Source of the DNA: a virus
Taxonomy: Duplodnaviria; Heunggongvirae; Uroviricota; Caudoviricetes
DNA: 23,417 bases
IMG/VR virus record: IMGVR_UViG_3300040801_002879
Span: 1 to 23,417 of that record
Direction: 5' to 3' (one strand)
The translations under genes and the position numbers were made by a program. Below the pieces are notes generated by a model. The model saw only the letters and a list, made by a program, of their open reading frames with translations. It had not been told where the DNA came from and searched no databases. Positions 3,778 to 20,282 of this stretch are shown one piece after another (the stretch's first letter is position 1; the number at the start of each line of letters is the position of its first letter).

Positions 3778-3850
3778 ATTACTTTTATCCTTTTCTCTAA
3801 ATATTGACCTTATCCCTCAATTTTGATTGTAGAAGACAAGGAGATTAAAA

Positions 3851-4318
3851 ATGAACGCTTTACACTTAATTCTTAGACCTACACCGCCCCAAGCTTCTGC
3901 ACTTGTTGATACCATGTCGGCTTTTAATAGTGCCAGAAACCTAGTTTTACGAGAGGCACGTAGCTCAGATTGTTACAACAAACACAAACTTAGTAAACAA
4001 TTCTATCACCAAATTCGAAATGACTTCCTCCTTCCGTCTCAATTAGCGGTTTCAGCAATTACTACAGTTGTTGAAGACCACAAGAATAATCGACTCCCTT
4101 ATGAGTACTCAGAATTTGCCGACACTTACTACGACAAACGAGTAATCTCATTCAAGGGACTTACGATTGCCAGTATATCTACTACAATCGGAAGACTACC
4201 TGTAAACTTTAGCATTGATAAATATATTCTATGGCATAACCAACCTTCTCAAATCGGGTCTGCTATTCTAAAGTATCAAATAGGTAGACAGCTTTCTCTT
4301 GTGACCATCATACGTTAA
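3851..4318 (+). CDS. TnpB-derived protein: N-terminal WED/REC lobe only, no RuvC or zinc finger
   Basis: LRPTPPQASALVDTMSAFNSARN, YNKHKL..FYHQIRNDFLLPSQLAVSAI, YDKRVISFKGLTIASISTTIGR and GSAILKYQIGRQLSLVTI match successive conserved blocks of IS200/IS605 TnpB N-termini. Stops before the RuvC-I (GxDxG) motif. RBS AAGGAG; uninterrupted frame. Confidence 0.8.
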   Translation: MNALHLILRPTPPQASALVDTMSAFNSARNLVLREARSSDCYNKHKLSKQFYHQIRNDFLLPSQLAVSAITTVVEDHKNNRLPYEYSEFADTYYDKRVISFKGLTIASISTTIGRLPVNFSIDKYILWHNQPSQIGSAILKYQIGRQLSLVTIIR

Positions 4319-4346
4319 TTATAGCATAAAGGTTATCATTTGTCAA
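4318..4346 (-). promoter_or_regulatory. Leftward sigma70-type promoter with extended -10
   Basis: Minus strand reads TTGACA (4346-4341), 17 nt, TATAAT (4323-4318), with TGn before the -10. Confidence 0.85.
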
Positions 4347-4407: not shown

Positions 4408-4653
4408 ATGTATAAAGTTTATGAAGAATTAATGATTGAAGACTTTGAGGATGCGATTTTAGACGAGATAATGATAAAGCAACTCGTTCATAACTTGCCC
4501 CCCGACAAAATAGCGGTAATTGCACTAAAACTTTCTGATGGGTTTACAACTGAGGAAATGTCGGATATTTTAGGAATTTCTACTGGTACAATTTGGAGCA
4601 GGTTCAAAACAGCATTGAAGATACTGAAACAAAAAGTGAGGAAAAATATATGA
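4408..4653 (+). CDS. Sigma70 region-4-only HTH protein (possible late transcription activator)
   Basis: LPPDKIAVIALKLSDGFTTEEMSDILGISTGTIWSRFKTALKILK matches the sigma region 4 pattern; no region 2. Start moved from 4360 to ATG 4408 because AAGGAG lies at 4396-4401 and 4360 is inside the promoter. Confidence 0.82.
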   Translation: MYKVYEELMIEDFEDAILDEIMIKQLVHNLPPDKIAVIALKLSDGFTTEEMSDILGISTGTIWSRFKTALKILKQKVRKNI

Positions 4654-4892: not shown

Positions 4893-5706
4893 TAAAGAGA
4901 TTACACCTTATACAGCAGATAAAGACATAAGTTGGCAAGAGATAATAAACGACTTAGTAGACCAAGTAGCAGGGGAAGATGTTAATGACATCCCTGAGAA
5001 AGTAATTAGTGCTACTGAATTGTTGCTTACTGGTATGCCCTACTATAAAGTCGCACAAAAGCTAGGTGTGACAACTGCTACAGTTAAAAATTGGATAAAG
5101 AAATATCCACCTATGGCTTTAGTATTACAAAGAGGCAGACCTCTCTTGGCAAAGTGGCGTATAGCTAAGCTAGAACAACAATATCTTATGGCTATAGAAA
5201 AATCTCAAGAAATTCTTGACATGGACTTATATTCACAAGATGGTGAAGAGGGTGTTCGAGCCCCTAACGCCAAACTTACAGGCGTGGTTGCCCAACAAGC
5301 AAGATTTATTATCCAACAATTTACACAAGTAAATAACGAAATCTCAATTAAGAGCGATGGCGAGAGTGTGACGATGGCTGCTTCTGGCGAAGCTTTAGAC
5401 TATATTGCTCAAAAAATAGCAGAACATCGAGATAAAGAAGAGCCTGTAGAAGCTACTTACAGAGTTATTGATGATAAAAACACTTCTGAAAAATATATTC
5501 CTATGTTGGATGAACATGGCGAGCCTTTCTATGGCGAAATGGGAATATTAGATATAAATGAAGATAATAAAATTCAATGTCATATTTGTGGAAATTATTA
5601 TAAAAGCTTGACAACACACCTGTACGGTAAGCACGAAGTACCGCCTGATGTATACGAACTAACATTTATGCTTGAGGAAGGAGCAATAGAGGATGCCGAA
5701 AATTAA
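4864..5706 (+). CDS. Putative terminase small subunit: N-terminal HTH, C-terminal MucR/Ros-like zinc finger
   Basis: HTH LLLTGMPYYKVAQKLGVTTATVKNWIKK; C-terminal IQCHICGNYYKSLTTHLYGKHEVPPDVY; directly upstream of and overlapping terL. Alternative start at 4885. Confidence 0.6.
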   Translation: MTLSTKKMNDKEITPYTADKDISWQEIINDLVDQVAGEDVNDIPEKVISATELLLTGMPYYKVAQKLGVTTATVKNWIKKYPPMALVLQRGRPLLAKWRIAKLEQQYLMAIEKSQEILDMDLYSQDGEEGVRAPNAKLTGVVAQQARFIIQQFTQVNNEISIKSDGESVTMAASGEALDYIAQKIAEHRDKEEPVEATYRVIDDKNTSEKYIPMLDEHGEPFYGEMGILDINEDNKIQCHICGNYYKSLTTHLYGKHEVPPDVYELTFMLEEGAIEDAEN

Positions 5707-7456
5707 TCCTGCTGAATTAGAATCTGCAGCATTGAAAAATCCTCTAATCTATGGTATTTCTTACGTAGACCTTCTCCAAAACAGAAAATGGGAAGTAGAC
5801 ACAAGACTTTGGCAAGAGGAAATTTATCAAGCTGTAAATCCTTATTATATTGAGAAAAATCCTGTAGGGCAAGCAAGACGCTTTACGGTTATGAAGTCTA
5901 CTCAGTGTGGACTTTCTACTGCTGGCTTGGTAAAAATGTTTCACTTTGCTGACTTGTGGAATGTTCGTTTGATTTATACACTTCCCCGCAGGCAAGACGT
6001 AACAGACTTTGTAGGTACTCGTATTGACCCTATGATAAATGCAAGTAAACGTCTTACGTCTAAACTTGGACAACCAGACTCAACTCGTGCTAAGAAAATT
6101 GGAAACTCTTATATTTTCTTCATGGAACTGTCGGTAGAACCTCGTATGATGCCCGCAGACGCTCTCTACGTGGATGAGGTTGACCTGAGTGACCCAAAGT
6201 ATATGGCAACTGCTCAAAACCGCTTAGATGCCTCTAAATGGAAATTGAACTATTTCTTTTCCACCCCATCACTGCCTAACTATGGAATCCACGGTTTATA
6301 CTTGAAAAGCGACCAACGTGAGTGGATGGTAAAATGTCCTCACTGTGGACACGACCAAGTATTAGATTGGGACCAAAACTTGCGGTATACAGGACTGGAG
6401 TCCAACCCTACAAAAGTATTTTATGGTTGTCAAGCTTGTGATGAAGAGCTATCAATGCAGGATATTCAAATGCAGGGTAGATGGGTGGCGGCTAAGCCTG
6501 CCTTGAGTGAAGAGAGTATTGGCTTTCATGTCTCTCAGCTAATGACCCACAGCGCAGCTTCCTTATGGGCATCCTACCATGACCCCCAAACAAACAGAAT
6601 TGAGTTTTACCGTAAGCGTTTGGGTAAACCGCTTGAGATTGGCGGGGGTGTTTTGGAAAGACAGGATATTTTACAGAACTGTTTTCACCAATACCATCCT
6701 ACAGAAGAAAAATATGATGGCAAGAGTTCTTACTATATGGGCATAGACCAAGGAAACGAGCTACAGCTTGTCGTTGGAAAGATTAGCCCCAATAGTAATA
6801 AGATGAAAATTGTTCATATTGAGGTTGTGCCTTTTGAAGAAGGCTTTGACAAAGTTGGTAAGCTTATGAACCAATACAATGTCAAGCTTGGCGTTATAGA
6901 CGCTGACCCTAACAGGCACTCGGCTATGAAGGTTGTAGAAAACTTTCCTGCCAAACTTCTCGCTGCGGATTATTCGAGTAATGCTAAAACAAGAATTACC
7001 GTTAAAAAGAATAAGCGGGGCATTAGAAGTAGAGTAAATTTAGGTCGTACCTTTAGTTTTGACCATTTATATGATACAATATTTAAAGGCTTTTTCTCGC
7101 TTCCTGGGCACGCAGATAGTATGTTGCCCGAAGTTGATAAACTAATTCAACAAGTTGTTTCTATTCGTAGAGACGTTGTTGAAAAGAACAGGCAAGAGGG
7201 AAGCTTAGACGTTGGTGTTTGGCGTGCTCTCGGTCCAGACCACTTTGCTCATGCTTTGGTTTATCTAAAAACTGCCTACGATATAGACAACACTGGTGCG
7301 AGATTTAGATTCCATATTATAGGGGAAGAGGGCGAAGAGGAAGAAGAGATTGACGCTGAGACTGCCGAAGACGAAGAGGTTTATAGCTTCAATCCCGATG
7401 GCGACTCTGATGAAGACGAGCCACCAAAGAAAACAACACGAATACGTATTATTTAG
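5693..7456 (+). CDS. terL: Terminase large subunit, lambda GpA-like
   Basis: MKSTQCGLST (Walker A-like), LYVDEVD (Walker B), FSTP, CPHCGHDQ...CQAC zinc ribbon, MGIDQG nuclease motif, DHFAHALVY. Confidence 0.92.
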   Translation: MPKINPAELESAALKNPLIYGISYVDLLQNRKWEVDTRLWQEEIYQAVNPYYIEKNPVGQARRFTVMKSTQCGLSTAGLVKMFHFADLWNVRLIYTLPRRQDVTDFVGTRIDPMINASKRLTSKLGQPDSTRAKKIGNSYIFFMELSVEPRMMPADALYVDEVDLSDPKYMATAQNRLDASKWKLNYFFSTPSLPNYGIHGLYLKSDQREWMVKCPHCGHDQVLDWDQNLRYTGLESNPTKVFYGCQACDEELSMQDIQMQGRWVAAKPALSEESIGFHVSQLMTHSAASLWASYHDPQTNRIEFYRKRLGKPLEIGGGVLERQDILQNCFHQYHPTEEKYDGKSSYYMGIDQGNELQLVVGKISPNSNKMKIVHIEVVPFEEGFDKVGKLMNQYNVKLGVIDADPNRHSAMKVVENFPAKLLAADYSSNAKTRITVKKNKRGIRSRVNLGRTFSFDHLYDTIFKGFFSLPGHADSMLPEVDKLIQQVVSIRRDVVEKNRQEGSLDVGVWRALGPDHFAHALVYLKTAYDIDNTGARFRFHIIGEEGEEEEEIDAETAEDEEVYSFNPDGDSDEDEPPKKTTRIRII

Positions 7457-7459
7457 TAC

Positions 7460-7488
7460 TTGACAAATCAAGTCAAGTATGGTATACT
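7460..7488 (+). promoter_or_regulatory. sigma70-type promoter for the tRNA
   Basis: TTGACA (7460-7465), 17 nt, TATACT (7483-7488), with extended TGn. Confidence 0.8.
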
Positions 7489-7495
7489 GTATAGT

Positions 7496-7567
7496 GCGGG
7501 TATGGTGTAATTGGTAGCATACTATCCTTCCAAGTTAGTTGTATGGGTTCAAATCCCATTATCCGCT
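7496..7567 (+). tRNA. tRNA-Gly (anticodon TCC), CCA not encoded
   Basis: Acceptor stem GCGGGTA/TATCCGC, anticodon loop CTTCCAA, T arm ATGGG-TTCAAAT-CCCAT, discriminator U; one U-U mismatch in the anticodon stem. Confidence 0.93.
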
Positions 7568-7595
7568 TGACAAGACCACAACTTTGTGGTATGAT
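7567..7595 (+). promoter_or_regulatory. sigma70-type promoter immediately after the tRNA
   Basis: TTGACA (7567-7572), 17 nt, TATGAT (7590-7595), with extended TGn; the spacer contains the palindrome ACCACAA-CT-TTGTGGT. Confidence 0.78.
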
Positions 7596-7601
7596 TGTCG
7601 T

Positions 7602-7848
7602 ACAACTGAAACTATCAGCAAGAGTAGTGGATGCAAATAGACTATAAATCTTGTGTAAAAGGTATATCATCCAGAGGGCTCAAAAGATATACCTTGTGAG
7701 AGCCCAAATGAGCTTAGCTCACTCCCGTCTGCGTTGGAGATACGGAAAAAATGCTGGTAAAGCGCAACCTGGACAGCACCGAAAGGATATTCCGTATGTG
7801 TAACTTCTCTCTTATTCCTAGGGAGAAGTGTATCTGCCAAGAGAAGAT
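7602..7848 (+). ncRNA. Candidate structured non-coding RNA or leader of unknown class
   Basis: Own promoter and no substantial plus-strand ORF. Stems: 7659-7668/7686-7695 (10 bp perfect), 7676-7681/7700-7705, 7709-7721 hairpin, 7740-7747/7790-7797 (8 bp perfect) enclosing 7752-7756/7774-7778 and CC-GAAA-GG, and 7803-7811/7821-7829. Confidence 0.55.
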
Positions 7849-7918
7849 AAATAAAAGAATTAATAAACTTTATATAGAATAATACTAAATAGAGTAATTA
7901 ACTTAATAGAATTAATAA
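7847..7918. repeat. AT-rich tract with short direct repeats
   Basis: 8 G+C in 72 nt by hand count; AGAATTAATAA at 7856-7866 and 7908-7918, with degenerate copies at 7876 and 7891. Confidence 0.55.
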
Positions 7919-7935
7919 GTGTAAAGGATGATTAT

Positions 7936-8466
7936 ATGACAATAAAGCCCGAAGAATTAAATTCACTGATAACTGCTTTTGACGATAGCACTTATCTTTG
8001 TTTTACCAGAGGTGCTTTTGATAGTTGGAGAGTAACGTTTCTAAACTCAGAAGGTAAACAAACCTACTCTCCGAAAGATACAGCCTTTTTTGATTATTTC
8101 TTATCTCTCACAGAATACGGTAACACAAGGCGAGAGATTTTCAATATCATAAAAAGAATGTCCAAGAAAATTTCTAAAGGTATGGAAGTAGATTTTGACC
8201 ACCTAAAAAAAGATATTTACAAGTATGCAGAAGAATTACATATCCCCGAAGAAGAACAACTCAAATTTGAAAAAGCCATGATGTCAGTTTTAGCAGCGAT
8301 GCTTTCAGAGGAACAAAAAGCATTTACGAAACTAGGCAAGAAACTAAAACTATTAGGATTGCATCAGGTTCTCATTGGCAAAATGGAGCCAAAAGTTGCA
8401 GCTAATTGGAGTAGAGGTAAGCCTTGGCAAGAGATTCTAAAGGAGTATGACCAATTAAATGTATAG
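7936..8466 (+). CDS. Conserved hypothetical protein, DUF7004-like
   Basis: GAFDSW near the N-terminus and AAMLSEEQK..TKLGKKLKLLGLHQVL..M.PKVAANWSRGKPW resemble my recollection of the DUF7004 family; RBS AAGGA. Confidence 0.55.
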   Translation: MTIKPEELNSLITAFDDSTYLCFTRGAFDSWRVTFLNSEGKQTYSPKDTAFFDYFLSLTEYGNTRREIFNIIKRMSKKISKGMEVDFDHLKKDIYKYAEELHIPEEEQLKFEKAMMSVLAAMLSEEQKAFTKLGKKLKLLGLHQVLIGKMEPKVAANWSRGKPWQEILKEYDQLNV

Positions 8467-9893: not shown

Positions 9894-11525
9894 ATGGAAA
9901 TATATGTTGCAGGTGCTAAAAAAGAGAGCCCTAAGCAATCAAGAGTTGTTTCCACAAAAGCACTTAGTAGAGACCTTGTTCAAACTTATTTAGGTAAAGA
10001 CGTTCCTCAGCTAACCAAAAAGTATAACCAATTTTGGGATTTGATGGATGTAATTGAACAACATGGCTATTTAAAATCATCTATTAGTGCGGTTGGAAGG
10101 GGAGCTCTTGGTGCGTGGTGGACAATTGCCGAACACCCTCTTTACATGGGTAAAGGCGATGAAAGTACGAAAGAAAAGCTATACGAGTTTTATAGCTCAA
10201 ACAGACGAAATTGGGATAACATAAAAGATTTTCAAAGCATGGCATACAAAATTGTGGCTGCCGCAATGTATTTAAAATATTTCGGGCAAGCCGCATTTTA
10301 TATTGTGAGAAACAAGAGAGGAACGCCTATTAGTTTAGACTTTCTCCATGGTCTTATTGTACCCAATGTAGATTCAGAAGGTTACTTCAAATCCCCCGCA
10401 TTTTACCAATTTAAGGATAGACAGGCTCTTGAAAGAATTGATTTCAGTGCTGATGAAGTCGTATTTATTTCTAATCCTGACATGAGGGGTAATCCCATGG
10501 GCGGTAGTGATGCAGAGTCACTTACCACTTTCAGTTTACCAACGGATATTTACCTGATGGCTGCTGCCCGTAACTATCTTCAAAATGCAGATAATCCCGA
10601 AGCAATTTGGGAACTTCCAGAAGATGTTACTGATGAGGCGTTTAATGAGTTTGCCGAAGTAATTTCAAAAAGATATAGAGGTGCTACCAATGCTGGCAAG
10701 AATCCTATTGTTGTAGCAGGCGAATTGAACTACAAAGAGCTAAGACGGATGCCAGAAGACCTGCCTTATGCAGACAGTCGTGATATTGCAAGAAATGAGG
10801 TTATAGCTACCAGTGGCTCTAGTGCAGTAAAACTAGGTTTGGCAGATGGTCAAAGCCAAGCAAACGCAAGAGAATTTAGACAAGAATTTTTGGAAAGTAC
10901 TCTTGTTCCTGTATTCAAAATGATAGAGGTTGCTTTCTATGAGCAAATTCACCGCAGACAGTTTGGCATAAAAGAGTGGATGTTTAAATTCGAACATCCT
11001 GACTTCCTGACAGCAGTTGAAAGAGCTACTGTTCATATGCGCTATATTCAAACAGGTGTTAAAAATCCTAATGAAGTACGTGCAGAAGAAGGACTTGCGC
11101 CAAGAGAAGGTGGGGAAGAATACGTTGACGTTACTGCTCAAAGCAAAGCAGGCAACGAACAGGGCTCACCACCAGAAGGCAGGGAAGACAGACCTGACAA
11201 GCCTTCAAACACAGGCGAGCCTACCCTAGACGACCAAGACCCCCCTAGGGGAGACCAGCATGATGAGCCTAACCGCCCACGAAGTCTCAGTCCAAATATA
11301 GACAAAGATGCTCTTATAGATGAGCTTTATACTATGAGAGATTTTACGGTGGGTAGAGTTAAGAAAGAAATGAGTTTACGAGAGTTTAAATCTGACATAC
11401 TTCCAGAAGATGTAAGACAACTGGCTAACGATTTTATACTTAGCAGGGATTGGAGTGTAGAGGATATAGATGAGATAAAAGAGTATTTTAATAGTGCAAT
11501 AGATTTAGTGAAGGAGAGTGAGTAA
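9894..11525 (+). CDS. Portal protein (HK97/lambda-like superfamily)
   Basis: YFGQAAFYIVRN..GTP..L..L, NYLQNADNPEAI, AGKNPIV, KNPNEVRAEEGLAPREGGEEY; position between terL and prohead protease. Confidence 0.9.
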   Translation: MEIYVAGAKKESPKQSRVVSTKALSRDLVQTYLGKDVPQLTKKYNQFWDLMDVIEQHGYLKSSISAVGRGALGAWWTIAEHPLYMGKGDESTKEKLYEFYSSNRRNWDNIKDFQSMAYKIVAAAMYLKYFGQAAFYIVRNKRGTPISLDFLHGLIVPNVDSEGYFKSPAFYQFKDRQALERIDFSADEVVFISNPDMRGNPMGGSDAESLTTFSLPTDIYLMAAARNYLQNADNPEAIWELPEDVTDEAFNEFAEVISKRYRGATNAGKNPIVVAGELNYKELRRMPEDLPYADSRDIARNEVIATSGSSAVKLGLADGQSQANAREFRQEFLESTLVPVFKMIEVAFYEQIHRRQFGIKEWMFKFEHPDFLTAVERATVHMRYIQTGVKNPNEVRAEEGLAPREGGEEYVDVTAQSKAGNEQGSPPEGREDRPDKPSNTGEPTLDDQDPPRGDQHDEPNRPRSLSPNIDKDALIDELYTMRDFTVGRVKKEMSLREFKSDILPEDVRQLANDFILSRDWSVEDIDEIKEYFNSAIDLVKESE

Positions 11526-11860: not shown

Positions 11861-12136
11861 ATGGCATACGGTAACGATGGAGTTTACCATACTAGAGCAG
11901 GTGGCAGTTATGCAGTTGGTACACTTATAGACCAGTATTTAGACGATGAAGATGTAAAAATTCTGTATGAGCGTTGGAGAGACAAATGGGCTTTGCCCTT
12001 GGAATACCCAGGCTCACAATTCGCAATCACTTGCGATATGATTGCAGAAGCACCACTTGATGAGTTGGTGTCAGTTTACGGAAAGAAACGTTCACTTAGA
12101 TATATTGAGGCTGCACAAAACGCACCTACATTATAA
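11861..12136 (+). CDS. Hypothetical protein (91 aa)
   Basis: RBS GGAG; lies in the head module. Confidence 0.7.
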   Translation: MAYGNDGVYHTRAGGSYAVGTLIDQYLDDEDVKILYERWRDKWALPLEYPGSQFAITCDMIAEAPLDELVSVYGKKRSLRYIEAAQNAPTL

Positions 12137-12146
12137 GGAGCTCTTT

Positions 12147-13364
12147 ATGGGTAATAAACAAAAGATACAAAAAAGTATGTACGGAATCCTCAAGGATTCG
12201 GCATTTAAAAAGAATGAAAAAGGAAATTTAGTTGTTAAAGGCTATTTTACGTCTGATAACCTAGATATGGCAGGAGACGTAATTACCAGAGACGCTACGG
12301 AGCGAGCATTACCTATGTATAAACAATGGGGAAATGTTCGTTATTTACATACACCTAAGCCAGTAGGCAAAGTCCGTAGAATTGGTATACAAGACGGTTT
12401 AGAGTGGAATGAAGCAGAAATTGAGGTTATTGACCCCGATGCAATTTTCCAAGTTGAAAATGAACTGCTCACGGCTCTTTCTGTTGGAATTTTAGTTGAC
12501 TTCAAAGATATTGACATTGATGAAGAAACAGGCGGGTTTATTATTAATAATTATACACTGGCTGAAATTTCATTGGTAGACCACCCCGCAAATTATGACG
12601 CAAGATTAAAAGACATCGTGCTTGATGACGAAGCACGCCATCTGGCTCTTCAATATGGGTTGGATGGATTAGCTAACCATATTGGAGGAAAAAACATGAC
12701 TGAAAAAGAGAAAGATGTTCTCGTGGAAGAGGAAGAAATTATTGAATCTCCCGAAGCAGAAGAAGAACTTGACTTGAGTGATGAATCCCAAGAAGTTTCA
12801 CCCGAAGAGGTTGTTGAAGATGCTCCCGAAGAAGAAGAGGAAGAAGAAGTAGAAATTTCCTTAGAAGCTGAGGAAGAAATTGAAGACGAATCCGAAGAAG
12901 ATATTGAAGATTCTGAAGAGGAAGCTCAAGAAGAGATTGAAGATGTTGTAACGGTTGAAGACTCTGCTGATGCTGAAATTGAAAAAGATATTTCAGAAGA
13001 AGAAGAGATTGAACAGGAAGATGAACCTTCTCAAGAAGATTTGTCGAAAGCAGTTCAAGAAATTCGAGAATCCTTGAAAGCTATTGCAGACGCTTTAGAA
13101 TCAGGTAAAGGCTCTGAGGAAGAGCAAGAGACCGATGATGAAGATGCTCTACAAAAAGAACTAAAGGCAATCAAAGAACAAAATGAACAGCTTGAAGCTC
13201 GTCTGAAAGAGTTAGAAGAATCGACTCCTGCTGAGCGCAAAGGGCTAGTGGAAGAGACCAACCTTGACGACCTTGAGGAAGAAGAAGAGGAAGAAGAGGT
13301 TCAGGAAATTCCTTCACTAAAGAAAGCTTTGAGAGCTCACTTTGAACGTAAACTTGGAAAATAA
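12147..13364 (+). CDS. HK97-family prohead protease fused to an acidic scaffolding domain
   Basis: VKGYFTSDNLDMAGDVI, VRYLH..KPVG, ALSVG, EISLVDHPAN. Start reassigned from 12042 to ATG 12147 (TAAGGAG directly upstream; avoids overlap with the previous gene). Confidence 0.88.
   Translation: MGNKQKIQKSMYGILKDSAFKKNEKGNLVVKGYFTSDNLDMAGDVITRDATERALPMYKQWGNVRYLHTPKPVGKVRRIGIQDGLEWNEAEIEVIDPDAIFQVENELLTALSVGILVDFKDIDIDEETGGFIINNYTLAEISLVDHPANYDARLKDIVLDDEARHLALQYGLDGLANHIGGKNMTEKEKDVLVEEEEIIESPEAEEELDLSDESQEVSPEEVVEDAPEEEEEEEVEISLEAEEEIEDESEEDIEDSEEEAQEEIEDVVTVEDSADAEIEKDISEEEEIEQEDEPSQEDLSKAVQEIRESLKAIADALESGKGSEEEQETDDEDALQKELKAIKEQNEQLEARLKELEESTPAERKGLVEETNLDDLEEEEEEEEVQEIPSLKKALRAHFERKLGK
12696..13364 (+). 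CDS. Nested in-frame scaffolding protein (internal start)
   Basis: GGAGG at 12684-12688, 7 nt before the in-frame ATG 12696 (MTEKEK), exactly where the protease domain ends; Glu-rich with C-terminal coiled coil. Confidence 0.65.
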   Translation: MTEKEKDVLVEEEEIIESPEAEEELDLSDESQEVSPEEVVEDAPEEEEEEEVEISLEAEEEIEDESEEDIEDSEEEAQEEIEDVVTVEDSADAEIEKDISEEEEIEQEDEPSQEDLSKAVQEIRESLKAIADALESGKGSEEEQETDDEDALQKELKAIKEQNEQLEARLKELEESTPAERKGLVEETNLDDLEEEEEEEEVQEIPSLKKALRAHFERKLGK

Positions 13365-13399
13365 TACTCTAATTAATTGTATATAAGAGAGGTATAAAA

Positions 13400-14713
13400 A
13401 TGTTAACTGAACTACGAAAGGCACTTGTTACGACAGGAGACGGTGCGGAACTTCTGCCTTACGATTTAGACCCTGTGCTCCACGAAGAGTTGCTGAAAAT
13501 TCAGCCTCTTGCACAGCTTTTGACCACAATCGAAGCTGGTGGAAAAACACACGAATATCGTAAGAGAGTGTCTCACCCAACCGCATGGTTTGAAGGCGAA
13601 CTAACGCCTCAAAACCCAAAGAACTCAACTTACGAAAGCAAGACACTCCAAATGAAGATTCAACGTATTTGGGGCTCAGTGTCTGGCTTCCAGCAAGCTA
13701 TGAGTGAGGAATTTATTGACGCTCTGGAAACAGAGTTAATGGGTAGTGTCGAAGGTATGGCAAACACCCTGGAATTTGGTCAAATGTACGGTGTTGCAGA
13801 CGACATCGGTTTCTCAGGAGACCCATTCCAATACACTGGTTTCATCCCACGTATCTATGCGTATGCTCCACAAAACGTTATTGATGCTGGTGGCGACAAA
13901 ATCACATTAACCGACTTGGATAACGTTATTTCCAAAGCTTTCGGTTTCCGTGGTGCAAATCGTGACCCACGCATGTGGATGATGTCCAAAGCTATGAAGC
14001 TTGTTGTTGATGGTCTTCAATCACGTGTTCAAATCCCTCTGCGGAGCTTGGAACTGTTTGATGGTAAAATCACAATGGCATCATACGCTGATATTCCGAT
14101 TTTGGAAACGGACTATCTGAAACCTCTGGCAGAATCTACTTCACCTTCCGATGTTGCTCTAACAGGCGCAGAATCAGGTGGTACTCTATCAGAAAGTTAT
14201 GATTACCGTATCGCTTCTGTCACACTGACAGGCGAACAGGAAGCAAGTGCAGCAGTCGGTACTCCCGAAGCTATCACTGGCTCAACAGGTACAGTAACTC
14301 TTGACTTCACCGCAGACCCAAATGCAGTTCAATACTACATTTTCCGTCAAGACGGTGGCTCAGGTGACTTTGCTCTGATTGACATTATTCCTGCAAAGAC
14401 ATATGATGCAAGTGGTACTGTAAATGGTACTGTAAGCCAATATGTTGATGATGGCTCAAAGAGCCCAATTGCCCAAATTAAACCTCTGGAAGCTGGCGAG
14501 CAATCAATTGTTCTGCTCAACCGCAATCCTAGACGTGGTTTGGCAATCGTAGGTAAAGTAGACGACATGGGTCGCCCATTGGACACCCTGTTCCGCTACG
14601 TAGACTTGGCTCGTACCAAGGACACCTATGACTACATGATTAAGGGTTACTTATCATCACGTGTGATTTATCCCGAACTCATGGGTATGGTAAGACACGC
14701 TAAATTAGCGTAA
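13400..14713 (+). CDS. Major capsid protein (HK97 fold) with inserted Ig/FN3-like domain
   Basis: Follows protease/scaffold; GKTHEY, AWFEGE, KIQRIWGSVSGF, YADIPILETD; beta-rich insert at about 14138-14466; followed by a terminator. Confidence 0.88.
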   Translation: MLTELRKALVTTGDGAELLPYDLDPVLHEELLKIQPLAQLLTTIEAGGKTHEYRKRVSHPTAWFEGELTPQNPKNSTYESKTLQMKIQRIWGSVSGFQQAMSEEFIDALETELMGSVEGMANTLEFGQMYGVADDIGFSGDPFQYTGFIPRIYAYAPQNVIDAGGDKITLTDLDNVISKAFGFRGANRDPRMWMMSKAMKLVVDGLQSRVQIPLRSLELFDGKITMASYADIPILETDYLKPLAESTSPSDVALTGAESGGTLSESYDYRIASVTLTGEQEASAAVGTPEAITGSTGTVTLDFTADPNAVQYYIFRQDGGSGDFALIDIIPAKTYDASGTVNGTVSQYVDDGSKSPIAQIKPLEAGEQSIVLLNRNPRRGLAIVGKVDDMGRPLDTLFRYVDLARTKDTYDYMIKGYLSSRVIYPELMGMVRHAKLA

Positions 14714-14732
14714 GACTAGTTAGTTAGTCTTA
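14711..14732 (+). other. Stem-loop overlapping the capsid stop codon
   Basis: TAAGACTA-GTTAGT-TAGTCTTA, 8-bp perfect stem. Confidence 0.5.
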
Positions 14733-14748
14733 AAAATAGTTGAAAATA

Positions 14749-14784
14749 AAGGGCGAGGCGATTAACGTTGCCCCGCCCTTCTTA
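14749..14784 (+). terminator. Probable intrinsic terminator after the capsid gene
   Basis: AAGGGCGAGGCGA-TTAACG-TTGCCCCGCCCTT followed by CTT; one mismatch; short U tract. Confidence 0.65.
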
Positions 14785-14809
14785 GAAGATGTAAAGAGAG
14801 AGGACTATC

Positions 14810-15181
14810 GTGCAAGGAATAGACCCTACTGTTTGGGAAATCGGTTTAGAAGTTGTAAAAGCTATTATAGGGGTAGTTATCCCTGCTATAACAGTAGCTT
14901 TGACTTTCTCCTTAAGGCGATTGAATCAGAAACTACAGAAGAAATCCCTCAAAGATGAAATTTATAGACAAATATCCATGGCTAATGAAGTAAAAACTTT
15001 TAAGGCTATGAATATGGGGAAGAAAACAGAAACCTTGCTTGAGAGTATGCAAGCTTTTGTTGTAAGTAACGAGATAGCAGTTTCTGAGATTGAACTAAAA
15101 TTAATGGTAGAAAGAGCATTACAGTCTGAAAATAATTTACAAATGAGATTTAGTATGTTAGATACAAGGAGTGAAGAATAA
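14810..15181 (+). CDS. Holin-like single-TM protein (LL-H-like)
   Basis: GTG start with GAGG; one N-terminal hydrophobic helix (AIIGVVIPAITVALTF), then a helical domain ending LMVERAL. Confidence 0.5.
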   Translation: MQGIDPTVWEIGLEVVKAIIGVVIPAITVALTFSLRRLNQKLQKKSLKDEIYRQISMANEVKTFKAMNMGKKTETLLESMQAFVVSNEIAVSEIELKLMVERALQSENNLQMRFSMLDTRSEE

Positions 15182-15411
15182 TGGGTACAATTAATGACCT
15201 TTTGACTAGTCGAGCAGTTTGGACAGCAGTAATTGGTTTAGCAACCACTCTGGTTTTGCGCTATGCACAAATTCCAGCAGAAGTTTGGCAATCCGTAGTT
15301 GCTTTATTTACCGTTATTGTAGCAAAGTTCACGGTGGATGACTTAGGTTTGACCATCGGTAGAACAATCGCTTTGACAATGAGAGAAGAACGCCAAAAAG
15401 AACAGGAGTAA
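15181..15411 (+). CDS. Holin-like two-TM membrane protein
   Basis: Two hydrophobic segments and a charged C-terminus (REERQKEQE); coupled to the upstream gene. Confidence 0.55.
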   Translation: MGTINDLLTSRAVWTAVIGLATTLVLRYAQIPAEVWQSVVALFTVIVAKFTVDDLGLTIGRTIALTMREERQKEQE

Positions 15412-15412
15412 T

Positions 15413-16150
15413 ATGTCCGAAAAAGTAGAACGTAGATTTGGGCGTATACCCTCACCGCCAGACCCAAGGGACTTTCACCTTACCAGTTTTGTTCCTATTA
15501 CCCTAGAGCCTTCTCCAAAAGAACGTGTGTGGGATTATCCCGCAGAGAAGACGCTGGACCAAAAGAACTCAACTCACTGCGTTGGTTTCTCTATGGCAAA
15601 CTTTGGTATTAACTTACCAACCTATACACCATACACCAACGAAGATGCACATGATTTTTATTACAAGTGCAAAATTATTGACGGTAATCCTGGGAGCGAA
15701 GAAGGCTCAACCCTGAGAAGTGCTTCCAAAGTCCTGAGAAATGTAGGAGCTATTGATGGCTACGCATTTGCCTATGATTTAGATACTATCAAATGGTGGC
15801 TTTTAAACCGTGGTCCAGTTATTGCAGGTACAATCTGGACAAACGAAATGAACTATCCTGATGAAGACGGTATCATTGGCATTGGCGGGCAACCTCTAGG
15901 TGGACATGCTTACCTACTTACAGAGTGGACAGAAGATGGTTACATCGGTATTAGAAACTCTTGGGGGGATGATTGGGGTAAGAAGGGTATGGCTTATATT
16001 AAAGCCGAAGACTTTGCTGAGATTTTCAAAAACTATGGCGAAGCTGTTACCGCAGTTGAGCTACAAGAATATGCTCAAACACAAGAACCAAAGTGGCTTA
16101 GAGCAATCAAAGAATTTATCAAGAAAATTCTTATTCACTTTACGACTTAA
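15413..16150 (+). CDS. Papain-like C1-family cysteine peptidase
   Basis: LDQKNSTHCVGFS (Q...C), GPVIAG, GGHAY (H) and IRNSWGDDWGKKG (N): full catalytic set. Confidence 0.88.
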   Translation: MSEKVERRFGRIPSPPDPRDFHLTSFVPITLEPSPKERVWDYPAEKTLDQKNSTHCVGFSMANFGINLPTYTPYTNEDAHDFYYKCKIIDGNPGSEEGSTLRSASKVLRNVGAIDGYAFAYDLDTIKWWLLNRGPVIAGTIWTNEMNYPDEDGIIGIGGQPLGGHAYLLTEWTEDGYIGIRNSWGDDWGKKGMAYIKAEDFAEIFKNYGEAVTAVELQEYAQTQEPKWLRAIKEFIKKILIHFTT

Positions 16151-16159
16151 GAGGTATAA

Positions 16160-16726
16160 ATGGCTTGGACTCTCTGTTCAAAAGAGCAAGTAACATCAAT
16201 ATATAAAATAAACGAGTCTATGCTAGATGATTTCTGGTCTGAAACCGTAGAATCCATGATAAGGAGTTATATTCGAGCTCCTTATCTTGGACTCTCGGAA
16301 GTTACGATTACAGAAAAGCATAGTGGTGATAGGTCGCCTATTATCTCTCTTAACAATCCCCCTGTAACAGGCGTAAGCTCTGTAAAGGTTGCTGGTGCTG
16401 AGATTGACCCTAGCAGGTACGATTTTGTTGGTACTGCTGTAGCCCTAACGGATGGTAAGGTTTTTCCTCAAGGCATCCTAAACCTTGAAGTTACCTACAC
16501 TACTGGCGGGGGAGAAGTACCTTCGAAAGTTCAACTAGCCGCCGCAACTATGGTTGCTTCAATTGCTATATTTGAAGGTAGAGCAGGGTCTGATGGCTCT
16601 ATAAAATATGGAGACTTGCCAGAATTTTTAGGTGGAGATACCAGCGTAAAAGACGTAGGTTTAGTAACGTATTTGAAGTATATTATGACTTCCATGTTAG
16701 ACAAGTATCAAATAAGGGTTAGATAA
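16160..16726 (+). CDS. Head-tail adaptor/connector protein
   Basis: EKHSGD..PIISLNNPPVTGVSSV...FPQGILNLEVTYTTG..EVPSKVQLAAATMV pattern typical of gp6/gp15-like adaptors with a beta insertion. Confidence 0.72.
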   Translation: MAWTLCSKEQVTSIYKINESMLDDFWSETVESMIRSYIRAPYLGLSEVTITEKHSGDRSPIISLNNPPVTGVSSVKVAGAEIDPSRYDFVGTAVALTDGKVFPQGILNLEVTYTTGGGEVPSKVQLAAATMVASIAIFEGRAGSDGSIKYGDLPEFLGGDTSVKDVGLVTYLKYIMTSMLDKYQIRVR

Positions 16727-17157
16727 TGATTGGATATTCAGCTTCTGAGCAAGCTATAGTAGATGCTATAATCGAGCATTTTCCGCAATTGAATGAATAC
16801 AATTGTAAAGCGGGAGAGCTTGACTCTATTATAGATTATATGTTTAGAGCACCCGATAAATATGGAGCACTGGTTGACTTTATGGGTGGACAACGCAGAA
16901 AACCAGAAAACTTCAATGCCTATATCTGGCAGTGGAACATTCTTATAACATTTTTTGTTCAAATAGATTTAGATACGATTGAAGATGATGTACGGGATAT
17001 TATAGATAAATCAGCAGTTTTTGCTGAGAAAAATCGTACTCTTGGCGGTAAGGTAGTAAAGTTTGACCTGTCCTATATTGGAAAGGTTGAGCAGGGAACG
17101 ACAGGAGATAAGCCTATAAGTTGGATTCCGATTACTACTTACGTTTGGGATAAATAA
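16726..17157 (+). CDS. Putative tail completion/terminator-type neck protein
   Basis: Size, position between adaptor and tail tube, alpha/beta pattern; coupled start (TAATG). Confidence 0.5.
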   Translation: MIGYSASEQAIVDAIIEHFPQLNEYNCKAGELDSIIDYMFRAPDKYGALVDFMGGQRRKPENFNAYIWQWNILITFFVQIDLDTIEDDVRDIIDKSAVFAEKNRTLGGKVVKFDLSYIGKVEQGTTGDKPISWIPITTYVWDK

Positions 17158-17168
17158 GGAGATTATAG

Positions 17169-17714
17169 ATGGCTGATAAAGCAGAATTTAAACTAGAAGA
17201 TATTGAAGGACTAGGCGAAAAGAAAGCCAGTCAACTTCGAGAAGAATTAGATATTGACAATGCTCAAGAGTTAGAAGAGGCTTTAGAGGATGGTCGAGTG
17301 GATGCCCTTGATGGGTTTGGTCCAAAGACTATCGAAAATCTTAAAGAAGCTGTAGCTAAGCTTGAAGCAGGGGAAGAAGAGCTAGAAGCTGTCGCTGAGG
17401 AATCAGTAGCAGAAGTGGAAGAGCCTGTTGTTGTAGAAGAGGAAACTTCAAATATTAGACGAAAGAAAGTTACAAATAGAGACGTTGATGTGCTCTTTGC
17501 TGATGTTTCAGCACGTGTACGAAATAAGTATGATGAAATTATCGTTACTGCTGATAAACATTATGTAAGAGATAGACGTATCAATTTCTTATTTGCCTTA
17601 GTTAGCAATATGGCTAAAGAAGGCGCAATTATTAAGTTTCCAGAAGAATTTTTCAACAATATGCCTAATGCAAAAGTTGAAGATGGCTACTGGATAATCG
17701 AAAAAGGAGAATAA
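17169..17714 (+). CDS. Tandem helix-hairpin-helix protein (PolX-like HhH) with acidic linker and unknown C-terminal domain
   Basis: LEDIEGLGEKKASQLREELDI...ELEEAL.DGRVDALDGFGPKTIENL resembles the HhH pair of family X polymerases; no polymerase domain. Confidence 0.7.
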   Translation: MADKAEFKLEDIEGLGEKKASQLREELDIDNAQELEEALEDGRVDALDGFGPKTIENLKEAVAKLEAGEEELEAVAEESVAEVEEPVVVEEETSNIRRKKVTNRDVDVLFADVSARVRNKYDEIIVTADKHYVRDRRINFLFALVSNMAKEGAIIKFPEEFFNNMPNAKVEDGYWIIEKGE

Positions 17715-17715
17715 T

Positions 17716-18270
17716 ATGAGTGCAATTGTTGGAATTGACGCTTCTGTTCTTATAGCAGAAGTAGGCGCATCTCAATTCGCAGGTGGTACAGGCGGTAATC
17801 CAGAAGCAGATGAATTACCAACATGGAATCCTACAACTAAGTTGTGGAGTTGGTCAAACCCTGATACTCTGACTGACCCTGACGATGTAACCCCTTGGAT
17901 GGAGTTGCCAGAAAGAAATGAAATCTCTCTTAGCATTTCAGTAGACGTAGCAGAACATAGACCTTTTGTTGCCTCACTTGAGGATGCTTGGGTAGGTAAG
18001 GCTCGTACTTGGATGGATTGGAGTGGTTCATTTAGCGGATTTTATGATGATGCTGATGACTCAATTTTTAATACCATGAAGTCGGGACTAGCAGTTTGGA
18101 TGATTATGTTCGACAGTCGCTTTGTTGAGGCTCTCGGAACACCTGCTGACTATTGGTTTGGAAAGATTTTGTTGACCTCAGTAGACCACACTACAGGCTC
18201 GGAAGACTTCTCTACGTTAGACGTAGACTTTGAAGGTGCGGGCAAACTATATCGTAGTGCGGTAGCATAA
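17716..18270 (+). CDS. Putative major tail tube protein, paralogue 1
   Basis: MSAIVGID start, DWSGSFSGFYD, TLDVDFEGAGKL: beta-rich tail-tube pattern, upstream of chaperone and tape measure genes. Confidence 0.75.
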   Translation: MSAIVGIDASVLIAEVGASQFAGGTGGNPEADELPTWNPTTKLWSWSNPDTLTDPDDVTPWMELPERNEISLSISVDVAEHRPFVASLEDAWVGKARTWMDWSGSFSGFYDDADDSIFNTMKSGLAVWMIMFDSRFVEALGTPADYWFGKILLTSVDHTTGSEDFSTLDVDFEGAGKLYRSAVA

Positions 18271-18283
18271 AGGAGATTATAAT

Positions 18284-18757
18284 ATGGCTGCAATTGTTGG
18301 TATTGATGCTGCAATTCTTACTGCTCCCGAAGACACCCTGACTCTTCCTTCTTGGGATGGTTCGGCTTGGACTTTAGGCGCATGGACTCTGCTACCAGAG
18401 CGTAATGAATTGTCAATTAGTATTTCGGTAGATGTTGCTGAACACCGCCCATTCGTAGACAGTCTTGAAGACGCTTGGGTTGGAAAAGCACGTACATGGA
18501 TGGACTGGTCGGGAAGCTTTAGTGGTTTCTATGATGATGAAGATGATAGCATTTTCAACAACATGAAAGCAGGTCTAAGATTACAAACTGTAATTTTTGA
18601 CTCTCGCTTGACTGCTGTTGCTGCTGGTCAAACTGATTATTGGTTTGGTAAAATTCTTCTAACTTCGGTAGACCATACGACAGGTAGTGAGGATTTCTCA
18701 ACTCTTGACGTGGACTTTGAAGGTGCTGGTGCACTTTTACGCTCAGCTACATCATAA
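18284..18757 (+). CDS. Putative major tail tube protein, paralogue 2
   Basis: Near-identical core to 17716-18270 (52 of 57 residues identical in the ERNE...MK block, hand count). Confidence 0.75.
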   Translation: MAAIVGIDAAILTAPEDTLTLPSWDGSAWTLGAWTLLPERNELSISISVDVAEHRPFVDSLEDAWVGKARTWMDWSGSFSGFYDDEDDSIFNNMKAGLRLQTVIFDSRLTAVAAGQTDYWFGKILLTSVDHTTGSEDFSTLDVDFEGAGALLRSATS

Positions 18758-18776
18758 TAAGTAATAGGAGAATAAT

Positions 18777-19187
18777 ATGGCACTTCAATTTTCAGTAAGT
18801 GTTAGAAATGCTCGTTTGGATGCAATTGAAACCGTTGTAGGTGCTTCGCCAGTTCTAAAGATTCGTTCTGGCTCTGCGCCTGCTAGTACTGGTGACGCAG
18901 ATACTGGTGATGTGTTGGCAACTATCAACCTGCCTTCTGACTGGATGGATGCTGCTTCTGGTGGTTCAAAATCCAAATCAGCTACTGCGTGGGAAGACGC
19001 AAGTGCCGATTTATCAGGTACTGCTGGACACTTTAGAATTTATGATAACGGTGAGACGACTGTTCTGATGCAAGGTACAGTTTCTATGGCGGGTGGTGGT
19101 GGCGATATGATTGTAGACAATACAAGCATAGCTGCTGGACAAACCGTAACTGTTCAAACATTCACACTTACAGATGGTAATGCTTAG
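18777..19187 (+). CDS. Conserved Gly/Ala/Ser-rich virion structural protein
   Basis: MALQFS..VRNARLDAIE...LKIRSG..P...VLAT..LP.DWM.AASGG...GTAGHFRI...GGGDM..DNTSIAAGQ.VT: a pattern I recognise from many phage structural modules; function not established. Confidence 0.65.
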   Translation: MALQFSVSVRNARLDAIETVVGASPVLKIRSGSAPASTGDADTGDVLATINLPSDWMDAASGGSKSKSATAWEDASADLSGTAGHFRIYDNGETTVLMQGTVSMAGGGGDMIVDNTSIAAGQTVTVQTFTLTDGNA

Positions 19188-19217
19188 TAAGTGAGCTTAG
19201 AAAATAATAATATAATT

Positions 19218-19251
19218 AGCGGGAGTCCCTAGCTTAGGTATTCCCGCTTTT
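19218..19251 (+). terminator. Intrinsic terminator
   Basis: AGCGGGAGT...ATTCCCGCT stem followed by TTTT. Confidence 0.75.
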
Positions 19252-19268
19252 ACTATAAGGAGGAAAAT

Positions 19269-20282
19269 ATGCCCGAAATGTCACAAGTTCTAATTAACAG
19301 GATGACTCCTAGACTGGATGAATCCGAAATAAAGTTGCAGTTTACGCAACAACCGCCTAGTGGGTGGACACTTGGTACGGATGTTTCTCACTGGCAAGGT
19401 GTTATTGATTGGGAACAGATGGCTAGCAAGGAGGTGGATTTCTCTATCACAAAGGCAACAGACTTTTATTCTTCATATGCAAAGGGTTTTGTGGATAAAA
19501 AGGCTTTTGTGAATTTAGCAGGAATGGAAGAAAATGGGATTATAACTGGCGGTTATTGCTGGTTACAACCAAAACAAGACCCTAAACTTCAAGCTGAGTT
19601 TTATCTGAACGAGTTCTACTCTAAAGCAGATGTAAACTTCCCACCTGTTTTAGACTTTGAGGATAACAATGTAAATACTTGGAACGATATGCTCTGGCGT
19701 GCTCAGGTTTGGTTGGAAATTGTCGAAGAAGAGACAGGACAACTCCCAATTGTATACACGAGCCCAGGATATATGATGAATTTTGATAGAACAAAATCAG
19801 GATTCCTAAGTCGTTATCCACTATGGGTTGCTCATTATATTCAAAGAAGTTATCCTACCGTTCCTTACCAATGGGATGATTGGATGATTTGGCAATATTC
19901 AGACAGAGGACACTATCCATATTATATTTATCAAGACCCAAATGGCGGGTATGGCAAAGATTATGGTGCTGGTTCTTATGGCTTGGATATGAATTGGTAT
20001 AAAGGAACATTGGAAGATTTGAAAGACTATGTAGGCATTGAGGAAGAGCCTGCTCCCATTCCACAAGAAGAGCCAATTGGCTATATTAGAGCAACACGCT
20101 CTCTTATAAAAGTACATGCTGGAAAAGGTGTTTTATTCCCAACTGTTAGACGCTTAGAGCGTGGGGAAATTGTACCTCTTTATGAGATTGGTTATGGCTG
20201 GTATCGTATTGGCAAGAATGAATGGGTACAGAATAAGTATATGCTAAAAGTGCCCTTACCAGACTACCCAAAAATGCGGTAG
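19269..20282 (+). CDS. GH25 muramidase (endolysin-like) with C-terminal SH3b-like domain
   Basis: GTDVSHWQGVIDW, ITKAT, PPVLDFE (DxE), IVYTS, YPLWVAHY, W.IWQYS, LDMNWY; C-terminal VRRLERGEIVPLYEIGYGWYRIGKNEWV; RBS AAGGAGG. Confidence 0.92.
   Translation: MPEMSQVLINRMTPRLDESEIKLQFTQQPPSGWTLGTDVSHWQGVIDWEQMASKEVDFSITKATDFYSSYAKGFVDKKAFVNLAGMEENGIITGGYCWLQPKQDPKLQAEFYLNEFYSKADVNFPPVLDFEDNNVNTWNDMLWRAQVWLEIVEEETGQLPIVYTSPGYMMNFDRTKSGFLSRYPLWVAHYIQRSYPTVPYQWDDWMIWQYSDRGHYPYYIYQDPNGGYGKDYGAGSYGLDMNWYKGTLEDLKDYVGIEEEPAPIPQEEPIGYIRATRSLIKVHAGKGVLFPTVRRLERGEIVPLYEIGYGWYRIGKNEWVQNKYMLKVPLPDYPKMR

Follow-up and report, generated by a model that had tools for sequence, protein, structure and literature searches.

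A structured RNA gene behind terL in a group of tailed phages is a divergent variant of the EGFOA motif with an added third pseudoknot

The interval between terL and the portal gene

The window, by which we mean the whole stretch of 23,417 nucleotides analysed here, comes from the start of an IMG/VR phage record of 87 kb (G000), of which it covers the first 23.4 kb; BLASTN against cultured phages returned no match. The packaging genes of this phage encode terS, a gpA-type terL and a PF04860 portal. Between terL and the portal gene (9894-11525) lie a tRNA-Gly gene, the RNA gene studied here, and a cassette made up of a DUF7004 gene, two small ORFs and a gene for a Cas4-like nuclease, for which coordinates and details are collected in Table 1. 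In the close relative L014, the Cas4-like gene contains an intein (1163-2392). Further along the window, 17716-18270 and 18284-18757 are tandem paralogues with about 69% DNA identity that probably encode tail-tube proteins.

Table 1. Positions of the RNA gene, its parts and its neighbours in the window
Feature	Position	Strand	Details
terL, gpA-type terminase ATPase	5693-7456	+	Followed by the RNA gene clade-wide
Sigma-70-type promoter of tRNA-Gly	7460-7488	+	11/12 consensus, TG extension; neighbour, outside the RNA gene
tRNA-Gly(TCC)	7496-7567	+	Optional neighbour of the RNA; missing in L006 and L017, both with the RNA
Predicted sigma-70-type promoter of the RNA	7567-7595	+	-35 at 7567, 17-nt spacer, extended -10 ending at 7595; 11/12 match
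Variable 5' domain	7602-7654	+	Stem 7618-7623/7649-7654; whole-stem replacement in relatives (by eye, no statistics)
Added H-type pseudoknot PK0	7659-7705	+	10-bp stem 7659-7668/7686-7695; loop pair 7676-7681/7700-7705
EGFOA PK1, 5' strand	7670-7674	+	Partner 7769-7773; three compensatory types
Small optional hairpin	7709-7721	+	Missing in L008
CC(C)GU hairpin with EGFOA PK2 5' strand (7727-7728, 7730-7733)	7722-7739	+	Partner 7763-7768
EGFOA P2 junction	7740-7797	+	8-bp P2 7740-7747/7790-7797 closes P4 and the GAAA hairpin; P3 missing
P4 arm	7752-7756/7774-7778	+	17-nt loop with PK2' and PK1'
3' hairpin	7803-7833	+	Stem 7803-7812/7820-7829, 10 bp with one G-U; purine-rich 3' strand, no U tract
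DUF7004 gene	7936-8466	+	Downstream of the RNA in the close subclade only

The predicted promoter of the RNA ranks in the top two among 27 such sites found over 7 kb and sets the predicted +1 at about 7602. A dedicated promoter had been proposed in an earlier note on this DNA, and the proposal holds up on comparison: 17 of the 19 orthologues have an equivalent housekeeping-type promoter immediately before the RNA. Early genes and tRNAs of this genome use promoters of the same type, which makes early and plentiful production of the RNA probable.

Several further features were observed around this promoter. Its -35 box overlaps the last base of the tRNA-Gly gene, whose own promoter places +1 at about the first tRNA base, without a leader, and CCA is not encoded. 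Operator-like inverted repeats lie across both promoters (7458-7478 and 7573-7588), the second being kept in L004, partly kept in L015 and L017, and lost in L006. The record holds three tRNAs in total, namely Ile(TAT), Gly(TCC) and Arg(TCT); the first is located outside the window, at 52596-52672 on the minus strand, and its anticodon TAT is unusual in bacteria. The octamer GATTGTAG occurs at 3825, 8469 and 9828, just before a gene for a TnpB-like lobe (see below), ORF 8517 and the portal gene, respectively; it also precedes the portal gene in 8 of 13 relatives, is found within the 5' end of the L008 RNA, and is a candidate late-promoter element of these phages.

Every helix named in the earlier note was located where the note had placed it. 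The 10-bp stem whose loop pairs with a downstream strand is PK0, and the loop presents the 5' strand of PK1. The 8-bp stem closing a three-way junction is P2, with P4 as its arm beside a GAAA hairpin (7779-7786) whose stem has just 2 bp; P2 and P4 are in register with P2 and P4 of the Rfam model, and the same junction is present in L047 and L052. A stretch of 15 nt in the P2/P4 junction (7744-7758) matches G000 83730-83744 exactly, probably by chance. The last hairpin stood as described in its position and its lack of a U tract, although its stem has 10 bp and not 9. It is present in the 14 orthologues that were folded, visual inspection showed a similar hairpin after EGFOAs that pass the Rfam cut-off in bacterial genomes, and it is probably the 3' end of the RNA gene, which would then span 7602 to about 7833.

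Covariation of the fold and its relation to EGFOA

Folding energy against shuffles, covariation among homologues and an Rfam scan had been named in the earlier note as checks on the fold. The first gave a z of -1.84, with 8 of 200 shuffles as good, in a calculation that does not score pseudoknots and is weak evidence alone. Since a knotted RNA is expected to give borderline folding energy, homologues were collected. In six close sequences, consisting of the window copy and those of L004, L006, L015, L017 and L008, which were reached via the portal, terL and DUF7004 proteins, a nine-helix model has 95% of cells paired, and 18 of 50 pairs are changed on both sides (0/500 shuffles; shuffles 7, slid controls 0-4), a result inflated by kinship. 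A test on 20 homologues was run with helices anchored by sequence motifs, not by complementarity. PK1 is paired in 99 of 100 cells, P4 in 98 of 100, and the PK2 4-mer in 76 of 80, with 13 distinct combinations; among distinct PK2 4-mers, 48 of 52 are paired, against a mean of 22.8 with shuffled partners (0/20000 shuffles). PK1 and PK2 correspond to the two long-range pairs that the note had offered as guesses. As far as aligned sequences can tell, this covariation is decisive, and the RNA structure is real.

The window copy displays each of the conserved elements of the core. For PK1, 5' YCCAG (7670-7674) pairs with CUGGR (7769-7773) in the P4 loop; for PK2, the pattern CCGU-N-N4 with N4-AC in the same loop is present at 7727-7733/7763-7768 (76/80 and 39/40 in the homologues), the long-range pair 7730-7735/7761-7766 being lengthened by 7727-7728/7767-7768 past a bulged C. 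The P4 loop of 17 nt starts with GUAA and stands on the junction closed by P2.

The assignment of this core to a known family depended on the sequence submitted. Rfam searches with the whole window, with 7570-7940 and with L051 gave tRNA or noise only, and RF02955, searched across the whole genomes of the window phage and L004, missed the RNA copy. A scan of the 106 nt at 7700-7805 gave EGFOA (RF02955) as the top Rfam match and the single one of full length, at 16.9 bits (E 0.24 across all families) and below the gathering cut-off of 37.7 bits; in this alignment P2 and P4 are in register, and P1 and P3 are deleted. EGFOA emerged only via the homologues and the 106-nt scan, and a plain Rfam scan therefore misses this RNA. 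A pattern search independent of proteins found the core in further phages, where Rfam gives EGFOA, and the EGFOA consensus is the conserved core. Among pattern matches in genome contigs, L098, L108, L127 and L134 are true EGFOAs and most others are chance; early matches discarded as chance include L012 and, with another early pattern, 24 of 25.

The RF02955 cut-off is reached by 5 of the 13 distant syntenic orthologues in the post-terL slot, namely L044 (49 bits), L055 (42.9), L059 (40.8), L060 (38.5) and L050 (37.8), and 8 of the 13 fall below it, including L049 (36.9 bits), L069, L047, L052 and L043. Two models with roughly calibrated E-values connect the window copy with these sequences. 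Model R2, built from 12 distant orthologues only, matches 7717-7799 of the window over its full length, as the sole match in the 87-kb record (E 8e-4), while model R1, built from the window subclade only, gives full-length matches in L052 (E 1e-12), L069 (1e-9), L047 and L051. These matches and the shared post-terL slot indicate homology between the window copy and EGFOA members that pass the cut-off. The earlier note had recognised no RNA class and proposed a novel ncRNA; the RNA is instead a divergent EGFOA variant, filed as such because it lies below the gathering cut-off and short of Rfam-threshold membership, and it is no new RNA class. Its descent from the EGFOA family can be regarded as very probable.

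The element order, PK1-PK2-P2-P4-PK2'-PK1'-P4'-P2', equals the layout in Fig. S24 of an EGFOA cryo-EM preprint (bioRxiv 10.64898/2026.07.01.735769), an alignment used here for element order only, and the conserved motifs and the 17-nt P4 loop are shared as well, as is the gene-free context. The same preprint presents the published EGFOA structures (PDB 23NN and 23ND). EGFOA is among the motifs of Weinberg et al. 2017, the main text of which does not name it (PMC5737381). The window copy lacks P3, a helix that both published EGFOA subfamilies have between P2 and P4; P3 is probably not a defining element, because L108 passes at 49.2 bits with a one-pair P3. A missing P3 together with a hairpin after P4' is found in the window copy, L008, L047 and L052, and this hairpin resembles the four-way EGFOA subfamily.

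Other identities were considered for the RNA. RF02956 (DUF2693) and RF02957 (EFASI) gave no match. A likeness to group I intron P3-P4-P6 was dropped, there being no P7 and no Rfam match. ARAGORN at default settings called no tmRNA, and L004 has a tag-like frame that is not conserved in L006, L015, L017 or L008.

In 16 of 18 copies linked to terL, the linker between PK1 and PK2 measures 40-77 nt, in contrast to about 10 in the Rfam model, and forms an H-type pseudoknot. In all 16 of these long-linker copies the loop pair reaches at least 5 Watson-Crick bp, versus 11% of cross-pairings, and the stem has at least 7 bp in 14/16 versus 14%. While the Rfam model and both cryo-EM subfamilies have PK1 and PK2 only, these copies carry a third pseudoknot, PK0, which is the one first noticed by the earlier reader. 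New with respect to the family are this third pseudoknot, the fixed post-terL slot and the common 3' hairpin.

Distribution of the RNA and its changing neighbours

Orthologues of the RNA are located just after terL in 19 phages whose terL proteins are 47-85% identical. The distant phages were gathered from a terL alignment, and the RNA-bearing ones are L043, L044, L045, L047-L052, L055, L059, L060 and L069 (n=13). Four clade members (L011, L054, L056 and L057) gave no copy detected by the R1 and R2 models in their available sequence, and the RNA is therefore probably dispensable. At 11908-12330, L057 has a post-terL promoter and a structured RNA with a similar 3' hairpin and no model match, which may be either a very diverged EGFOA or a different RNA in the slot.

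The neighbouring tRNA is not a constant companion. In L006 and L017 the RNA is kept and the tRNA is missing, while in L008 the RNA stands at the end of an array of at least 26 tRNAs. The own promoter and the occurrence without a tRNA show that the RNA is not a tRNA-trailer ribozyme. The L008 array, at 13383-20090 between terL and the RNA, also includes HNH genes, and one of its tRNA-Tyr genes was called with anticodon ATA.

Members of the family are also encoded at a distance from terminase genes, both in jumbo phages and in bacterial genomes. In L067 (about 5500-6300), L079, L087 and L082, which look like jumbo myophages, the P4/PK1 core is embedded in gene-free structured regions of much greater size; the core is preceded by a conserved gene (about 220 aa), and a baseplate-hub-like gene is convergent.

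On the downstream side, DUF7004 follows the RNA in 6/6 close relatives and is missing beside the 13 distant orthologues; elsewhere the RNA is followed by a small ORF, by other genes or by a convergent gene, the last in L067, L079, L082, L087 and L074, with jumbo-phage copies among them. This variation bears on the riboswitch-like leader for the downstream cassette suggested in the earlier note, and on any leader, riboswitch or put-like antiterminator, acting in cis on the cassette or the head operon. The order of promoter, RNA and same-strand genes, the purine-rich strand sequestered in the 3' hairpin and the constant DUF7004 of the close relatives would fit a leader. The downstream genes vary across the clade and are convergent in these five copies, however, so that the homologues as a whole have neither a consistent class of same-strand downstream gene nor an expression platform; neither a U tract nor an alternative fold was found, the nearest start codon downstream lies at a distance of about 100 nt, and in 9 of 14 phages the portal gene is preceded by a motif of its own. 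We consider such a leader very unlikely.

The same distribution speaks to an antitoxin RNA of the type III kind acting on DUF7004, for which the position of a pseudoknotted RNA just upstream of a small uncharacterised gene might argue. Self-BLAST, however, showed a single copy with no repeat array, in place of the roughly 36-nt tandem repeats that precede the endoribonuclease toxin in ToxI/AbiQ-like systems. DUF7004 had no match in a PDB fold search or in PADLOC, and none to a toxin or defence protein. An antitoxin role, raised in the earlier note, has found no support, and this form of it is hardly credible.

Between the RNA and DUF7004 lies an AT-rich block of short repeats (7870-7930), which in close relatives is better conserved than the 5' domain of the RNA and is duplicated in L014; the distant phages have different AT-rich repeats at the equivalent position. 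A promoter, a folded RNA and a G-rich 3' strand followed by this conserved block, in a phage encoding RNase H and SSB, would be compatible with a primer RNA for an R-loop origin at the block, resembling ColE1 RNA II. The cumulative GC skew, in which an origin signal may be masked by transcription bias, has its turning points near 4.2 kb and 45.4 kb, at the switches in transcription, and no inflection at the RNA, and we give the primer only a slight chance.

A trans-encoded partner RNA of a TnpB lobe had also been proposed in the earlier note. The 155-aa ORF at 3851-4318 (+) is predicted to fold like the REC-WED lobe of Cas12f/TnpB without RuvC (best Foldseek E 5.6e-5, TM 0.6-0.7), leaves no space for an omega-RNA at its 3' end, and is present in, and confined to, the close subclade bearing the RNA. 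Known TnpB omega-RNAs and Cas12f guide RNAs serve as the comparison (bioRxiv 10.1101/2023.11.30.569447; PMC13472631). The lobe gene is 3.3 kb upstream of the window RNA, which is neither adjacent to nor overlapping it, contrary to an omega-RNA at the tnpB 3' end, and no guide-like 3' segment matching the genome was found. The lobe itself is real, but it was not found in the loci of the 13 distant RNA-bearing phages, nor in five whole records of these, where a distant homologue could escape; L047 and L052 have the exact junction of the window RNA and no lobe. The conserved gene upstream of the jumbo-phage copies compares with the lobe at an hhalign probability of 0.4%, from shallow profiles. 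The lobe is thus missing from most RNA-bearing phages, and a trans-encoded partnership with the RNA appears highly improbable.

Other observations concern the lobe gene alone. It is antisense to a leftward early promoter at 4346 and preceded by the putative late octamer, and its neighbour at 4408-4653 (+) encodes a protein consisting solely of sigma-70 region 4, a pairing that recalls dCas12f-sigma systems. Many clusters of 140-190 aa in the Atlas resemble the lobe.

In the upstream direction the setting is more constant, and the post-terL slot is retained where the portal module has moved and is inverted (L048 and L051). Together with the oligomerisation of EGFOAs in vitro, this constancy across the 19 phages would favour a packaging RNA that docks on the prohead or terminase as a loop-loop oligomer. 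The phage ncRNA of this kind, phi29 pRNA, has loop-loop pairing and works with the gp16 motor; the window RNA has loop-loop pairing potential and adjoins a packaging gene. The motor of the window phage is nevertheless of the terS/gpA-type terL kind with a PF04860 portal, not of the phi29 family, and no pRNA model of Rfam matched; to our knowledge, gpA-type terS/terL motors need no RNA in known systems. The RNA has a housekeeping-type promoter, and the putative late motif is found before the portal gene and not before the RNA, except in L008. The occurrence of EGFOAs distant from terminases and the four relatives without a detectable copy likewise weigh against packaging, and the idea, already present in the earlier note, has gained no support and seems distinctly unlikely.

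Proposed mode of action

The own promoter, the conserved fold, the variable neighbours and the separate motif of the portal gene indicate action in trans, which we regard as likely. As the comparison of sequences shows, the core folds into the EGFOA double pseudoknot, in which PK1 and PK2 dock in the 17-nt P4 loop on the P2 junction, with PK0 holding the PK1 strand in place. The PK2 sequence varies freely when paired, as a scaffold would, while the nucleotides of PK1, GUAA and CCGU are nearly fixed, which suggests a tertiary core or a binding surface.

The near-invariance of PK1 and of unpaired nucleotides within a compact double pseudoknot may also denote an unrecognised ribozyme or ligand-binding RNA with the double pseudoknot as its active site, cutting, for example, 5' of the core. 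HDV-like ribozymes have such a compact nested double pseudoknot with near-invariant nucleotides. There was no Rfam ribozyme match. In the structural work on EGFOA, whole transcripts that had been purified and then folded at 50 C with 10 mM Mg2+ gave structures of intact RNA, an outcome that speaks against a cut within the core. The main text of Weinberg et al. holds that such features often signal sophisticated RNAs (PMC5737381). We judge this reading unlikely.

Two EGFOA RNAs studied by cryo-EM in vitro form a trimer (up to a hexamer) and a strand-swapped dimer, according to the preprint cited above (bioRxiv 10.64898/2026.07.01.735769); these oligomers belong to two other members of the family. 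ROOL and GOLLD are abundant phage RNAs, often beside tRNAs, that have multiple pseudoknots, are homo-oligomeric and have no assigned function (PMC12286853). The window RNA resembles them in its phage-borne context near tRNAs and its several pseudoknots, and differs in its length (230 nt versus about 580 and 800 nt), in its fold and in the lack of an Rfam match to either. The in-vitro oligomers and the context of ROOL and GOLLD favour a decoy or scaffold for a host factor. In the mechanism we propose, host RNA polymerase would transcribe the RNA from its strong housekeeping-type promoter, the end hairpins and the knotted core would make it stable and abundant, and the rigid, probably homo-oligomeric RNA might bind a conserved host factor during infection. 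This last step, drawn by analogy, is tentative. Taken overall, we lean towards a stand-alone, trans-acting, EGFOA-derived phage ncRNA of about 230 nt that serves as an oligomeric decoy or scaffold.

It is improbable that the terL-linked subfamily supplies an RNA subunit of a conventional terminase machine or a partner of the TnpB lobe; were either true, it would be the first function for EGFOA, and would extend RNA-assisted packaging beyond phi29-like phages in the former case. EGFOA is a family with published structures and no assigned function. The natural variants, in which the tRNA is lost, the portal module inverted, or the lobe or DUF7004 absent, remove several candidate functions, and the window copy, being among the smallest, is well suited to cryo-EM and pull-down work. 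The locus adds to EGFOA a subfamily mostly missed by Rfam, whose cut-off excludes the window copy as well as 8 of the 13 distant orthologues, and gives the family probable transcript ends and, on present sequences, a genomic slot kept at about 50% terminase identity.
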